A stretch of DNA of 64,000 nt. Source: Octopus sinensis (taxonomy: Eukaryota). Shown here piece by piece: positions 12,093 through 57,750 of the stretch; positions within the stretch are counted from its first letter, which is position 1, and each line of letters starts with the position of its first letter. The stretch is taken from positions 68,634,001 through 68,698,000 of the forward strand of contig NC_043007.1 in the NCBI RefSeq assembly GCF_006345805.1. The letters are read 5' to 3'. Below the pieces are notes generated by a model that saw only the letters and a program-made list of their open reading frames with translations, searched no databases and was not told where the DNA came from. A program made the translations under genes and the position numbers.

Positions 12093-12556
12093 ATTATTAC
12101 ATTATATAAAAGGGCTTAGTAAAATAAATTACTTTGCCGCATACTGAACTCATTAGAAATAGCAACCAAAGAAAACTTTTTTAAAACTATTTCTAATACT
12201 TAAAGAAAACCTCTCTCATATAGTGTTTGTTCAATTCAACTCACGCAAATATGGGGGTAGAGACATTAAAAAATCAAGTGCACTTGATTTTTTAATGTCT
12301 CTACCCCCATATTTGCGTGAGTTGAATTGAGCAAACACTATATGAGAGAGGTTTTCTTTAAGTATTAGAAATAGTTTTAAAAAAGTTTTCTTTGGCTGCT
12401 ATTTCTAATGAGTTCAGTATGCGGCAAAGTAATTTATTTTACTAAGCCCTTTTATATAATGTAATAATTTGAATTCGCCTTAAATGGTCCCTTTGCATAC
12501 TGAATACTTGGTGAAATTGATTAATTAATTAATTTTACCCTCAATTGTTGAAATTA
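12093..12556. mobile_element. Spacer-less palindrome (188-bp arms, centre 12280/12281) plus one-sided tail, in (TA)n
   Basis: 12093-12280 is a near-perfect reverse complement of 12281-12468. Right arm and tail resemble 45870-46020 (CTGCTATTTCTAAT..GTATG.GG.AA, TACTTGGTG.AATTGAT). Confidence 0.9.
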
Positions 12557-20108: not shown

Positions 20109-20532
20109 TAAGGGCATTACTACACGCAAATGCCTCACGCTATGAGGGACACTTAAAGTCAGAACTACTATAATAAACATACAAGAATATATTCAGTGCT
20201 GAAATATTCTGAATATACACGTGTACGGAGATGCAAGTTGAAAAGCCCGCCTCTTACATAGATACATAAGGGTCAACATTTCTATGTGCTATCTTGGATA
20301 CATATTGTGTTCGTCGTTTGTTGAATTTTATTCATTTTTTGTCTTGATTATGCCTGCACTGACGATTAGAAGGTGGATTGTGTACACTAACTATGAAATC
20401 TTATGATTTGCGGCTGAATCTGTTTTTAAAGGGTGGCTTCCAAAGTTGAATTTCCTCGCGTTCGGTACACTGTATATGGCAGTTTTGACTTTAAGAGTCC
20501 CTCATAGCGTGAGGCATTTACGTGTAGTAATG

Positions 20533-30433: not shown

Positions 30434-30672
30434 CCGGAGTAAACACATAAATGTGAAACAAGGTGGAAAAAAGAGTACTTAAATACCAGTGGTAGAGTAA
30501 TATGCTTTATTTAAAGCAGCAGAAAATTCATCAAAATCTGTTACTCTGAGTTTCTCGTTGCCGTTCATCAGACAGTTTTTGACAGTTTTTCTAGCAAAAA
30601 CAGTCTGATGAACGGCAACGAGAAACTCAGAGTAACAGATTTTGTTGAATTTTCTGCTGCTTTAAATAAAGT

Positions 30673-33097: not shown

Positions 33098-33145
<48 letters not shown>

Positions 33146-33398
33146 CATTATTATTATTATCATTATTATTATTATTAGAAATATTGAATTTCTAAATGTC
33201 TCAGAGAGACATAAGCGGTGGTGGAGCGATATAAGTAGCCGTATACTGTCAACACAATGTGACAGTCCCGTAAGGGAATTACACCACCGTCATTTAGCCC
33301 TAGGAAACATCGACGTCTCCTGTCGGCTTTGACACATTTTCTGTGTCCTTATATTTGCAATGGGGGAGGCAGTCACCCCCGCAAGCCGGGACAAGGCA

Positions 33399-33444
33399 CC
33401 TGAAGACATATGTTTCTGAGTGTATTGCTCATCGTCAGTTCAGG
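33399..33444 (-). ncRNA. Type I hammerhead ribozyme with intact core, in a pLTR-like insert (about 33177-33460) within (ATT)n
   Basis: Minus strand: CCTGAA-CTGACGA-TGAG-CAATACA-CTCA-GAAAC-ATAT-GTC-TTCAGG. 6-bp stem I, GUC site. Confidence 0.9.
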
Positions 33445-33469
33445 GTAGCCTGCCTCGCTATTATTATTA

Positions 33470-33571
<102 letters not shown>

Positions 33572-34018
33572 GTAGTAGTAGTAGTATAGTAGTAGTAGTA
33601 GTAGTAGTAGCAGTAGCAGTAGTAGTAGTAGTAGTAGTAGCAGTAGTAGTAGTAGCGAGTTGGGAGAATCGTTAGCACACCGGTCAAAATGCTTTGTGGC
33701 ATTTTTGTCCGTCTTTACGTTCTGAGTTCAAGTTCCGCGAGGTCGACTTCACATTTCATCCTTTCGGTAAATTAAGTACCAGTTGAGTACTGGGATTGAT
33801 CAAATCGACTAACCCTCTTCCATAAAATTTCAGGCCTTGTGCCTTTAGTAGAAAGGGTACACCAGGCATATACATCACAGCCATATGTGTGCGATATGGT
33901 GATCTCATATGAAGATAAACAGCACCTGATAAAAAAATACCATTTGAGTACTGGGGTCGATACAATCGACTTACACACTTTCCGCAATTGTTGGCCTGGT
34001 GTCAAATTTTTTAAATTA

Positions 34019-34543: not shown

Positions 34544-34703
34544 CGTAGGAGTGGCTGTGTGGTAAGTAGCTTGCTTACCAACTACATGGTTCTGGGTTCA
34601 GTCCCACTGCGTAGCACCTTGGGCAAGTGTCTTCTACTATAGCCTCGGGTCAATGAAAGCCTTGTGAGTGGATTTAGTTGGGGGAAACTGAAAGAAGCCA
34701 ATC

Positions 34704-34789
<86 letters not shown>

Positions 34790-35012
34790 TATATATATAT
34801 ATACATATATATATATATGATTAGCTTCTTTCAGTTTCCGCCTACTAAATCCACTCACAAGGCTTTGATTGACCCGAGGCTATAGTAGAAGACACTTGCC
34901 CAAGGTGCCACGCAGTGTGACTGAACCCAGATCCATGTGGTTGGTAAGCAAGCTACTTACCACACAGCCACTCCTACGGCATTAGACTGTTTCTAATTAT
35001 CTGCTGATCTTC

Positions 35013-35290: not shown

Positions 35291-36114
35291 GAGTATTAGG
35301 AGGAGAGGTGACAGTGTTCATTTTTTTTTCAGACTGGGATCTGGGTCGAGTTAAGGGAGTTTGACTGTTGCCGTTTAATCTAAGGTCAACTCTGAATGAG
35401 TAGCCTATGTTTAAAGGCATTTCAGCCATAACATCCTACTTTTTCACTTTATGCAAGTAATGCAAGGTCACTTCCAAAGTGCTTTTCATAAAACGCTGGG
35501 ATGTAATTCCTAGGAGCCTGGTTGCTGTGTCTATTATCTACGCTAAGGTCTCCTCTTGGAAATCGAAGTCCATTAGTGGGTTCATTAATCAGTTTAATGA
35601 AGATCAGCAGATAATTAGAAACAGTCTAATGTCGTATAAAATTAAATGTTTTGTGTTATTTATTTATTTCCTGCTAACTTGTAATTTACATCTCTCTAGG
35701 ATTGATTTTAAGAAATACCACTCTGAAATTAAGAAGATCGATAAAACAAGATATTGAGCTCCAGCCAAACTACAGAATGCAGTAAAAAAAAAGGCTTTAA
35801 GATTTATCACTCAGGATAAATGTTTCATCAGCAAATACAAAATGTACACTGATCCTAATCATAATGGGAAGTAATAAAACAATAAAACATTAAGCCCATT
35901 AACTAGTTAGAAGATTTCTATAAGATATGAAAGCAGTAACTATACTGATAAGTAATGTTTATTGCTATTTCAACATAGCTGTTCCGTAGGAACCGACGTT
36001 ACTGTTATTTTAACCCCAGGAGGACACCCCCTCTTGCTGGTTATTCGATGCAATCTGCACCCGATATATATTGCAAGCAGGAGAGCGAACCCCTATCGTC
36101 TTCCAGCGACGGGA

Positions 36115-36163
36115 CCACCAGACTGTACGGTTTGGAGCTATTTGTGCTTTTCCTCAGTGGTGG
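36115..36163 (-). ncRNA. Degenerate hammerhead
   Basis: Minus strand: CCACCA-CTGAGGA-AAAGC...GCTC-CAAAC-CGTACA-GTC-TGGTGG. G12 is lost. Confidence 0.7.
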
Positions 36164-36439
36164 AAACTCATCTGCTACAGATAGCTACAGAAAATAAACG
36201 ACAACCAGTCACTGTTCTTGCGACAAGGAAATAGCTACATAAAAATAACATTGCGATTTGCCTATCTTTAGCCGCGCCATATCAGTAGTGGTGTAAGATA
36301 TGGGTGCCTTTCTGTTTCACTTGGTATTAAACTCTTTCATATGGAATATATATTAGCGACAGAAAAAGAATTAATACCCAGAGGTAATATTTCTTCTATA
36401 GCCAGGTTCGAACACAAGCCGCAGAAACTAAGTCTACCC

Positions 36440-36700
36440 ACCACACCTCTCTTTCCAACACTACTGCCTCGAGTTCCTTGATGCATTTCAGATCAGTGTC
36501 TGAGATCAAGTTGTCGATGTAAGTGTGATAACGTTTTCCTCTCCTTACCCATGAACTAGTTTGGATGCTTCCAGTTCATGTTGGTGTATGCAGTGACCAG
36601 ATATTTACAAGTCTTTGCCTGATCTTCTCCCTAACTTTCGGCAGGATCTTCATGTGAATGTTCTGTTAGTACAAGCTATATTACGGTAGGTAACATGACC
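36440..36700 (-). pseudogene. RTE-like LINE 3' end remnant
   Basis: Minus-strand fragments SGHCIHQHELEASKLV and TYIDNLISDTDLKCIKELEAVVLEREVW resemble the RTE ORF C-terminus. Confidence 0.6.
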
Positions 36701-37017
36701 AAAATATCTCATATTGGCTTATGATGCAAAATACGCTCTTGTTTATATCACTAACGGGGAGATAACTCCCCGATATTTCCAGCGCTGAGACCACCAGATT
36801 ACGTGATTCCGACTTCTTTGACCGCGTCATAAGAATAGACTGCTTTGTGCTAGAATCAGAAAACAATATAGAATAGCTTAAAGAGAATAAGCGATGATAA
36901 GCTTACGTAGGCAGGACATTGAAACAAGATTCTACCCTCACCATCCATATCGGTTTCCTTGCCCGAAACTGGTTGCATCTTCCTGCCTAACGTGAACTTA
37001 TTAAACTGTTTATTTTC

Positions 37018-37246: not shown

Positions 37247-37345
37247 GCTGTTGTTGTTGTTGTTAGTGTTCAGGATACTGTTTGGAATCGAACTCGGAAT
37301 CTTGGGGTTAGTAGCCCGCGCTCTTAACCACTACGCCATATGCCC
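37018..37345 (-). mobile_element. tRNA-headed element: pol III head, (AAT)n, hammerhead-bearing tail
   Basis: Head GGGCATATGGCGTAGTGGTTAAGAGCGCGGGCTACTAACCCCAAGATTCCGAGTTCGATTCC has A and B boxes. Degenerate HHR at 37097-37137: ACAC-CCGAAGA-A-GGCTG...CAACC-GAAAT-GTGT. Confidence 0.7.
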
Positions 37346-37997
37346 GTGGGTATATTTATTTGCTGTTGTAACACAAAATACATTTCTGCAAGTAATGATT
37401 ACGAGCTCTGATAATTATTAGTACTTGCATCTGAGGTGACGACTGCACAGTCGAGTACTGGTTCAGTTCACTCTCCCTTCCCTCTCCTTCTCCAGCTGTT
37501 ACACCCTCGATATTCCGATAGATTATTAGTGGGCCAAGAGTGTGTTTATGTCTGCTCGCGATTACATGGGCACCTAAAAGAATTAGCAAAAGCAAGGTAC
37601 ATACATCCAATTCATACTCGCTTATGGTTGACAACTCTAGTTTGGTCGAGTCACGATATATTCTAATGAGGGAGGCTTGTATGTAGAGAAAAGAAAGGGG
37701 TACTAATATGAAATCGAGGATCGTGGTCTGACGTTATATTGTAATTCGGAAGGTTAGTCGAAGTACTGAAAGCATTTCGACCTTCCACGGTCGATAAAAT
37801 AAAGCACAAGTCAAATACTGCGGCTAATATAATATACCATAGTTATCTCCCATATTCAGGGCCTTTTGCCCAAGCAAAAAAAAAATCAATATTTACGTAA
37901 GCACCATTTTCTACCTGTCACTGATTTTGAATATTTATTGATGTTGTCTACAGTGTGTTGTTGTTTTTGTTATTGTTATTGCAGTTGTTGTTGTTGT

Positions 37998-38033
<36 letters not shown>

Positions 38034-39233
38034 GGAGGAGGAGGAGGAGGAGGAGGAGGAAGGCAATATTATGTAGGACAGAGGAGCGCATTGGCACGAG
38101 TCGCGAAAACATCGGATCAAATTCATTAGATGTATGTTCTGGTTCTTTGCATTCTGAATTCAAATCACGCAGAGGTCACTTTTTTCTTTCATCCTTCAGA
38201 AATCGATAATTTAAAGTTCCAGGCAAATACTTAGGTAGATGTAATCTGCCAAACTCCACCATTGAACATTGTTGGCCTTGTGATTCAACTAGAAATAGTG
38301 ATTATTATGTTGAATTTTTTATTATACACAGAATGGGACAATACAAAACGTGACAAACATAAAATCGGGGAACTTAAAATACAAAAAGATGAATTAAGAC
38401 GGAAAAAACCCCAAAACGAATGAAAATATGAAAGAATATAAATGAGGCGCAATGCCCACTCGACCCCCGAAGTCAAGTGGTTATATTTCGACAATTTTTC
38501 CCTTTATCATAAATGAATATCACAAAAATTCAATTGAATTTTTCTTTTTAGTCTCTCATATTCTATTATGGCGGGTGGACTCTCATGCAGCAGACACCGT
38601 TTCATCAGTTTTACATTTTTTGCAAATCCCGCTATGAATTTATTATATCTCTCCCTAGGTATCAAAATACCTCCGTCATTTACGTCAAAAGTGTCTCTCG
38701 ACAGCGCCACTCTCACCTGTCCCTTCACTTACACTATTTTTCTCTCCGCGTCTGCACAATAATGATTATTATGTTGAAGCGTAGAAGTCATCACAGCTTA
38801 GCCATTAAAAACAGATAAACAGTTAACTTCAGTTAAAAATATATTATTTGGTGTCAAACTTTTCGCCGCACCGTCTGCAACCCGGTTACTATGATTGTTA
38901 TTGCTGACCAAATATCAGGTTTCAGACTTTAGGATTCGAAAATTTCATAATGCGCGGGAAAAACAGGAAGAGATATTGAGTATTTCGTCTCCATACATCC
39001 GCGAAGTCTGGTGTGCAACAGATGATCTTCATGCACTGGTATCAGGGACTTCTTTGAGAATATTGTAGCAAATAATAACTCAACATGGCGGCGACAAAAT
39101 TTTAACAAATCAACACTACGCAAACTGAAGAGAAAAAGCATTGGTTGAACAATGACCTTTACGTAAGAGAGGCAGTGGTGAGAGCTCAAAATCTGGAAAC
39201 AACAAAGTAGATTAACTACAACTAAATCTCAGT

Positions 39234-49004: not shown

Positions 49005-49249
49005 ATATTTACAGGATTAAATAAAAAGACAACAAACGGAAAATTCGACATAGCTATATATATATAGATGTTTTCGATCTAGTTTGAATTCTTTGCCATT
49101 AAATTTGAAAACTTTGCCATCAAATTTGAATTCTTTGCAATCAAATTTGAATTTTTTGCAATCAGATTTGTTTGCAAAGAATTCAAATTTGATTGTAAAG
49201 AATAAAAATTCGATGGCAAAGAATCCAAACTAGATCGAAAGCATCTACA

Positions 49250-57433: not shown

Positions 57434-57478
57434 TATATATATATAAATATATTTATATCTATACATATAGTTAAAATA

Positions 57479-57750
57479 ATTTGCCAAACTAACGTGGCAG
57501 TTGAATGTTAGTGTTATTTAACCCCAGGAAACATCGTCTCCAGCTGGCTATATGACACACAATCCGTATCCTTATATTTTCGAAAATGTAAGGAAGCAGA
57601 TTGTGCATCGTATAGCCAGCTGGAGACGATCTTTCCTGGCGTTAACTAACACTAATATTCGACTGCTACGCTATGTTGGCAAATAATCGTTACTCTAGAG
57701 TACTGTTACTAAGTGTCACTTGTGGAGAGATTTGCAAATAGAAATTTTCT
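57479..57750. mobile_element. Palindrome (57479-57684, centre 57581/57582) plus one-sided tail; carries the HHR-associated hairpin module
   Basis: CCAGGAAACATCGTCTCCAGCTGGCTAT pairs with ATAGCCAGCTGGAGACGATCTTTCCTGG. Similar to 33291-33360 and 36004-36076. Confidence 0.8.

Follow-up and report, generated by a model that had tools for sequence, protein, structure and literature searches.

What is the hairpin that follows a hammerhead ribozyme in this stretch of octopus DNA, and what does its conserved pairing serve? The window, i.e., the whole 64-kb stretch analysed here, is AT-rich and microsatellite-rich animal DNA. A preliminary description had placed one two-stem hairpin at three loci within it and had offered reverse transcriptase (RT) recognition, end protection or a translation signal as its function. 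We find that this hairpin is one part of a predicted RNA domain of ~185 nt, which starts 44-45 nt past the hammerhead cut site. The two stems are present as described, while the number of loci and the extent of the fold have to be revised: the window holds five copies (A to E), all of them single or truncated units, and the fold has at least three further helices.

Copies in the window and their hammerheads

Copies A, B and E sit behind a hammerhead or the remnant of one. For copy A, sequence and motif scan place a type I hammerhead at 33393-33456 (-), which comprises stem I (33444-33439/33404-33399) with a bulged extension, the core CUGACGA (33438-33432), stem II (UGAG/CUCA), GAAA and a palindromic 2-bp stem III ACAUAUGU, with the predicted cut after C33405. 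Thus, every type I feature is present (core CUGANGA, GAAA, NUH, stems I-III, open at stem I), where the assignment follows the motif and the descriptors in PMC4209133 and is known here from sequence alone. The Rfam hammerhead models gave no match at E<=10 at the A or B locus. Among predicted Xenopus dimers, only 1 of 9 was cleaved (bioRxiv 10.64898/2026.07.22.740005). The hammerhead of copy B (36163-36115, -; cut site position 36121) had been taken as intact; it is in fact decayed, i.e., CAAA replaces GAAA and stem II is broken, and the family B majority restores stem II among the variant rows listed. Copy E retains a remnant at ~36835-36791 (-). The distance from the cut site to a TTGCAA-like motif is 45 nt in A, 45 nt in B and 44 nt in E. 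Such a lead-in had been described for all loci; it holds for the hammerhead-linked copies, while the third locus starts with TTCGAA.

Two minor observations concern hammerhead sequences. In copy A (33432-33430, -) and in the family B majority (36151-36149, -), A9, the next U and G10.1 spell AUG, and the frame so opened inside hammerhead A closes after 19 codons. The ORF of PAc (Poseidon of Anolis carolinensis, Frangieh et al. 2024) reportedly starts where stem II begins (PMC11167929). A further hammerhead-like string at 20359-20408 (+), CTGACGA...GAAA, was rejected; it has poor stems, is without the downstream module and likely arose by chance.

The two-tier hairpin, H2 in the following, has its inner stems at 33320/33303 (A), 36034/36019 (B) and 57541/57527 (C), all on the minus strand. 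Its outer stem reads AGCC/GGCT in A (33328-33325/33299-33296), (T)AACC/GGTT(A) in B (36042/36012) and (T)AGCC/GGTT(A) in C (57549/57520), such that a single pair of this stem is G-C in A, G-U in C and D, and A-U in B. The third locus, reported to carry the module alone, is actually a head-to-head pair at 57466-57581 and 57582-57697, whose arms of 116 nt (copies C and D) are 82% complementary.

A and B are ~55% identical. Homology was assessed with a covariance model trained on the 57.5-kb pair (C, D) alone and then run over the 64 kb. It gave 14 matches at E<=5, among which the only significant ones outside the training pair are 33277-33359 (A, E 1.2e-7) and 35966-36074 (B, E 2.7e-5). Both lie behind a hammerhead and in the same register as the hand-set one; the next-best match has an E-value of 0.13. 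An nhmmer profile found no match in the reversed window. The homology thus goes beyond chance. Copy E was picked up by nhmmer from copy B (E 0.003) and not recovered by the C/D model, and leave-one-out nhmmer recovered neither B nor E. We thus regard homology as firm for A-D and as weaker for E.

Over A, B and C/D, the hairpin domain matched no Rfam family at the gathering threshold. Sub-threshold matches were chance or hairpin matches only, i.e., to microsatellite or hairpin miRNA models. Near-perfect long inverted repeats elsewhere in the window are likewise matched by miRNA models (49063-49249, 12234-12327, 30538-30638, 34630-34893); these four are possibly other head-to-head insertions or MITEs. 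One metagenome scan for the motif of H3b, a hairpin described below, had one locus (L001) as its sole match, which we discarded as a chance hairpin; the 800 bases covered there show no further part of the domain.

Architecture and covariation of the predicted fold

The domain follows a constant order: H0; the TTGCAAATATAA segment; H1; H2 with its two tiers; P3, a long-range stem around H3a, H3b and an unpaired stretch; and a tail that ends in TAGAAA..TTCT. In copy A, all parts lie on the minus strand. H0, a G-rich/C-rich hairpin 3' of the hammerhead, was found by folding at 33362-33380, with equivalents at 36079-36094 (B) and 36756-36771 (E), both (-). The TTGCAAATATAA segment, identified by sequence, covers 33349-33361, 45 nt past the cut site. 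The family A majority letter at 33361 creates the palindrome TTTGCAAA, and the C/D pair is inverted about the position that matches 33361. H1 is a 6-bp hairpin at 33331-33347 (RNAalifold and hand register), which persists, with changes, in B (36061/36047), C (57570/57554) and D (57593/57609), and in part in E. H2 (33296-33328; folds, covariance model) consists of a 4-bp outer stem, an internal loop and an inner stem of 6-7 bp. It is followed by the 3' multibranch domain at 33214-33291, delimited by folds, the pair test for the 3' domain given below and contig ends. Here, P3 (33291-33282/33223-33214) encloses H3a (33277-33266), H3b (33266-33245, with an 8-nt loop) and the unpaired AC-rich stretch. 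The tail (33175-33212; sequence, fold) folds into a hairpin (33212-33196) and carries the terminal inverted repeat TTAGAAAT/ATTTCTAA (33195-33175).

Copy B (35904-36236, -) is one ~333-nt unit of a tandem-forming family according to sequence, contig joints and folds. Beside H0 and H1, it shows H2 (36043-36011), P3 (36006-35998/35940-35932) and the terminal TAGAAA-TTCTA at ~35920-35908. Its degenerate sister, copy E (36660-36835, -; nhmmer), has H0, H1 and an altered H2; it is interrupted at ~36660 by another repeat, which leaves a module part of ~36660-36755. Copy C (57466-57581, -), the short arm of the head-to-head pair, shows H1, H2 and H3b without H3a. In the long arm, copy D (57582-57750, +), the tail reaches TAGAAATTTTCT (57739-57750) and then (ATAC)n/(TA)n. 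The terminal TAGAAA..TTCT motif is common to A, B and D. An 11-nt inverted repeat (82%), 33351-33361 with 33174-33184, could close off copy A's domain as a whole; in copy B this repeat is weak. A pairing over long range between TTGCAAATAT and the terminal motif was also considered, which is present in A and was dropped since it is weak in B.

On alignments made from sequence only, RNAalifold found H1 and H3b in four copies and P3 in A and B, where 4 of 7 pairs are changed on both sides. For the covariation test, we took the pairs from copy A's own fold, used a sequence-only alignment (MAFFT) of four or five diverged sequences and permuted the changing columns. Of 12 pairs that are changed on both sides between A and B, 10 retain their pairing (null mean 5.2, P=0.014), which bears out the earlier reading that pairing is kept while sequence changes. 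The total of pairs kept over the whole A-B alignment is not significant (30/48, P=0.13), because MAFFT misregisters H2 and the tail helices of A are not kept. The same permutation test yields P=0.04 and 0.01 for A vs. D and no significance for A vs. C (P=0.09 and 0.81). For the 3' domain alone, which was picked for testing after the RNAalifold result for P3 had been seen, 17/20 pairs are kept (P=0.007) and 8/8 double changes pair (P=0.002), with slid controls keeping 3-8 of 19-20. Hand-set registers, which lean towards pairing, give 112/125 paired cells; between A and B, all 12 double changes pair in this register and outnumber the single changes (5). In copy D, only 5/9 of P3 are paired.

Over the first 80 nt, copy A folds better than shuffles (z -3.7), while B, C, D and E alone do not (z -1.1, -1.2, -0.6 and -0.3). 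Within helices, the hammerhead strand has 14 G-U cells vs. 6 A-C cells; this excess is a modest sign that the hammerhead strand is the folded one.

Variation within families was read from public contigs aligned to two stretches, which are the source of all family-level evidence given here. We scored 24 of 35 variant rows for family A and 9 among the 40 rows listed for family B (109 further ones lie outside this set). Among the rows scored, all 9 majority variants within helices keep or restore the pair. They include an identical P3 mismatch that is repaired in families A and B; in H2, the family A majority shows a double change from A-U to G-C at 33316/33307. Minor variants in helices number three among the rows scored, two of which (6-10%) break stems. 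The fixed spacing of 44-45 nt, the covarying pairs and the lack of a matching Rfam family together support the proposal of a hammerhead-linked, cis-acting structured element.

Families, tandem unit and insertion ends

Family A contigs occur in runs under four organism labels. Relative to single-copy sequence, the summed contig depth over the module is ~3,600-5,700x for A, 750-1,100x for B and ~200x for E; as a rough guide to copy number only, this suggests families of roughly hundreds to thousands of copies. In A and B, the module depth is 11-16x the hammerhead-side depth (summed contigs). We rejected this contrast as proof of truncation, since upstream parts that are >20% different or the 4-nt deletion in B would also lower depth.

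Contigs link the 3' end of B back to 36232, and the family B unit is therefore ~333 nt and tandem-forming. The joint 36232->35904 is seen in one contig per run in 4/4 runs and perhaps reflects one locus; three other junction versions imply the same ~333-nt unit. Such a unit fits a non-LTR retrozyme (PMC7229834, in its accessible text; bioRxiv 10.64898/2026.07.22.740005). Evidence for tandems comes from family B only, and copy A ends on both sides in (AAT)n. The longest stop-free frame over B, 92 codons at 35956-36231 (+), runs antisense over most of the copy and is probably due to chance in a decayed copy. The GC content is 0.43-0.45. As the window copies are decayed, an ancestral coding frame in retrozyme copies is conceivable.

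The insertion ends fall at set places of the fold. Copy A lies between two (AAT)n microsatellites identified by sequence, one upstream (33461-33570, -) and one downstream (~33101-33177, -). Some contigs of family A stop at 33231-33241, where the flanks are mixed and AT-rich in 2/4 runs; others extend to ~33180. The first end in copy A (~33231-33240) is thus inside the unpaired AC-rich stretch within P3, and the second (~33178) is joined to (AAT)n. The same two sites delimit the head-to-head pair, which sits in a TA-rich microsatellite, (TA)n/(ATAC)n: arm C halts just past H3b, at site 1, adjoining (TA)n, while arm D reaches site 2, ~53 nt beyond, at the terminal motif. Both insertion ends therefore fall inside the domain or at its end. 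A and C/D are thus set in microsatellites, (AAT)n and (TA)n/(ATAC)n, respectively, which does not hold for B and E. Loose contig ends at 33363 were considered as an inversion and rejected, as they are a clipped continuation.

A tail on one arm together with an inverted 5'-truncated copy are described as marks of Penelope insertions (PMC8557442, PMC3846280). The C/D pair, as one example, has this type of footprint, i.e., an inverted 5'-truncated arm and a tail at one end only, where the tail of ~53 nt compares with 30-40 nt published. The third locus is therefore an insertion that is truncated and inverted, rather than a module standing by itself. We gave no weight to the palindrome at the C/D centre, since every inversion creates one.

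No autonomous partner element was found in the window frames or in the supplement of Craig 2021. Pfam gave no informative match for 27 window frames (picked partly from a list of 74), i.e., none for an ORF with RT and GIY-YIG, and no such ORF adjoins a copy. A search of the Craig 2021 supplement with six motif strings yielded nothing relevant, although matches split by a line break could have been missed. In the Hydra-1_Obim given there, the sequence past the hammerhead is too short to contain the domain.

A predicted start site for a borrowed reverse transcriptase

RT recognition is the best fit of the three proposed functions, as both fixed insertion ends lie in the domain. We thus favour, with somewhat better than even confidence, that the domain is the predicted binding and copying-start site of a borrowed Penelope-type RT. 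Its position is no proof of enzyme binding, since 5' truncation enriches any domain at the end where the RT starts. The domain had been placed near the 5' end left by self-cleavage; in DNA, however, it forms the 3' terminus, i.e., the side of RT start.

The predicted cycle would run as follows. Transcripts of the tandem units would be cleaved at the hammerhead and possibly closed into circles by ligation, as in other retrozymes. The RT-endonuclease of an autonomous Penelope-like element would bind H1-H2-P3 and nick an (AAT)n or (TA)n tract. The cDNA could then be primed at either of two internal sites, namely the unpaired AC-rich strand in the P3 junction (site 1) or ~53 nt downstream, past the terminal hairpin (site 2). 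Early stops would yield solo or inverted domain copies without hammerhead.

The host elements are of a known kind. With metazoan non-LTR retrozymes (Cervera and de la Pena 2020, PMC7229834; Li, Clavereau and Pollet, bioRxiv 10.64898/2026.07.22.740005) they share the type I hammerhead, whose stem III is short and palindromic, the ~333-nt tandem unit (family B), many dispersed monomers and a proposed dependence on Penelope-like elements. As in those retrozymes, no coding region was found, with an ancestral frame conceivable as stated above. In contrast to non-LTR retrozymes with shown cleavage and circles, they are known here as sequences, and the window holds single units only. The helix set conserved across families is not described in the accessible text of PMC7229834 or in bioRxiv 10.64898/2026.07.22.740005, and the accessible part of a 2020 review presents animal retrozymes as having no conserved motif that points to a helper (PMC7761336). 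We found no description of the domain in the literature searched, i.e., the cross-family domain is undescribed there; Lunse et al. 2017 (PMC5785218) and the supplement of PMC7229834 could mention such hairpins.

The closest enzymatic parallel is PAc. As far as PMC11167929 is accessible, the PAc RT has two internal start sites downstream of the hammerhead, in an AC-rich stem-loop, and its tail equals the distance between these sites; the RT requires the 172 nt that follow the start of the ORF, and its preference is for ATT. Shared with the octopus domain are the location downstream of the pLTR hammerhead, two adjacent start sites that define the tail, the AC-rich start region and the ATT target preference, a likeness drawn from the description of PAc. 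For PAc, the region belongs to the coding sequence, its start sites being 111-118 nt into the ORF; it is presented in the same text with a single named stem-loop and without comparative structure. The octopus domain, by contrast, appears non-coding, has at least five helices, and its ends lie ~175 and ~225 nt past the cut site. Hammerhead cleavage is reported to be unnecessary for PAc insertion in vitro, for this one Penelope element studied (PMC11167929).

EN+ Penelope-like insertions share head-to-head arms, a tail at one end, a palindromic junction and microsatellite targets with the octopus copies (Arkhipova 2013, PMC3846280; Craig 2021, PMC8557442), as far as these are covered in the accessible text. 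For these elements, pLTR sequences are described there as sufficient in cis for mobilisation in trans. They differ in the tail length given above and in that the octopus copies are without an RT or GIY-YIG gene.

In telomerase RNA, and in the 3' stem-loops that SINEs have in common with their partner LINEs, the structure of a non-coding RNA recruits the RT and sets the start of copying. This is a functional analogy only, given the other enzyme class or substrate and the internal initiation at two sites predicted here.

A broader version of the RT reading is more tentative. H1-H2-P3 may be a folded scaffold that is common to retrozyme families and their helper and is read by Penelope-type RTs, a possibility to which we give roughly one part in three. 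It is similarly speculative that these enzymes, the sister group of telomerase RT, recognise an RNA fold rather than a short sequence, and that one template start lies within the multibranch loop and the second past the terminal hairpin. If the scaffold reading is true, the domain would supply the cis signal so far missing, by which animal retrozymes can be assigned to a helper, and would offer gene insertion driven by Penelope a portable tag.

The fold could instead serve the RNA itself, i.e., the stability of circles or of the 5'-OH end, access for a ligase of the host or the shielding of hammerhead folding, while the RT reads local end sequence. Retrozyme circles are predicted to be highly self-paired with the hammerhead left free (PMC7229834, in its accessible text), and the spacing fixed at 44-45 nt speaks for it as well. 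General stability, however, needs neither a constant helix order nor the 8-nt loop of H3b and the terminal motif at ~55% identity, and both insertion ends are at set places in the fold. We thus consider this explanation rather unlikely; end protection may still be among the functions of the domain.

That the domain works as DNA, with ATATAA as TATA-like internal promoter and inverted repeats for the GIY-YIG endonuclease or for fold-back priming, appears improbable. It is in accordance with the TATA-like promoters of pLTRs and the palindromes at inverted junctions (PMC3846280), the D. virilis tail required for endonuclease recognition of DNA (cited in PMC11167929) and the promoter within schistosome hammerhead repeats (PMC6765202), each as given in the accessible text, and the C/D inversion centre falls at the TTGCAA-like/ATATAA motif. 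Yet the compensatory double changes and the G-U bias of the hammerhead strand fit a single-stranded structure and not a duplex motif, and no tRNA gene was called in the window by ARAGORN. A DNA-level reading may apply to the TTGCAAATATAA segment alone.

Less probable still is that the helices are unselected leftovers of a structured ancestor, with a module that is prominent only because 5' truncation multiplies the 3' end. The decay of the window copies, the non-significant whole-alignment results for A vs. C and for total pairs in A vs. B, and the lean of hand registers towards pairing would agree with it. Drift, however, mostly gives single changes that break pairs, in contrast to the excess of double changes between A and B, all of which pair in the hand register, and the family majorities repair mismatches.

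A translation-initiation signal for RNA uncapped by self-cleavage, for which RNA viruses and other retroelements provide ribozymes with a link to translation initiation as a precedent (PMC7761336, PMC13725137, in their accessible text), is very improbable and little supported, since the family B unit returns to the hammerhead after ~333 nt, Pfam on nearby frames revealed no protein family and the AUG in hammerhead A reads just 19 codons.

For the question of how protein-free animal retrozymes recruit an RT, a covarying domain with both insertion ends provides a mutable target: in the Penelope assay already established in vitro, its stems could be disrupted and then restored. With a covariance model, the domain could also help to find the autonomous partner.

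Other repeats occur in the window. The one that joins the 3' side of copy E, 36330-36660 (-), has ~40-80x single-copy depth. One of its frames (one stop) gave no match in Pfam and homologue search; we take it to resemble the C-terminus of an RTE-type LINE protein. By eye, a tRNA-like SINE head at ~37270-37350 (-) has A-box/B-box-like strings; (AAC)n/(AAT)n comes next, and ARAGORN makes no call there. Two related SINE-like stretches, which presumably resemble a common octopus SINE, lie at ~33700-33815 (-) and ~38150-38240 (-), the first of them upstream of the copy A microsatellite.
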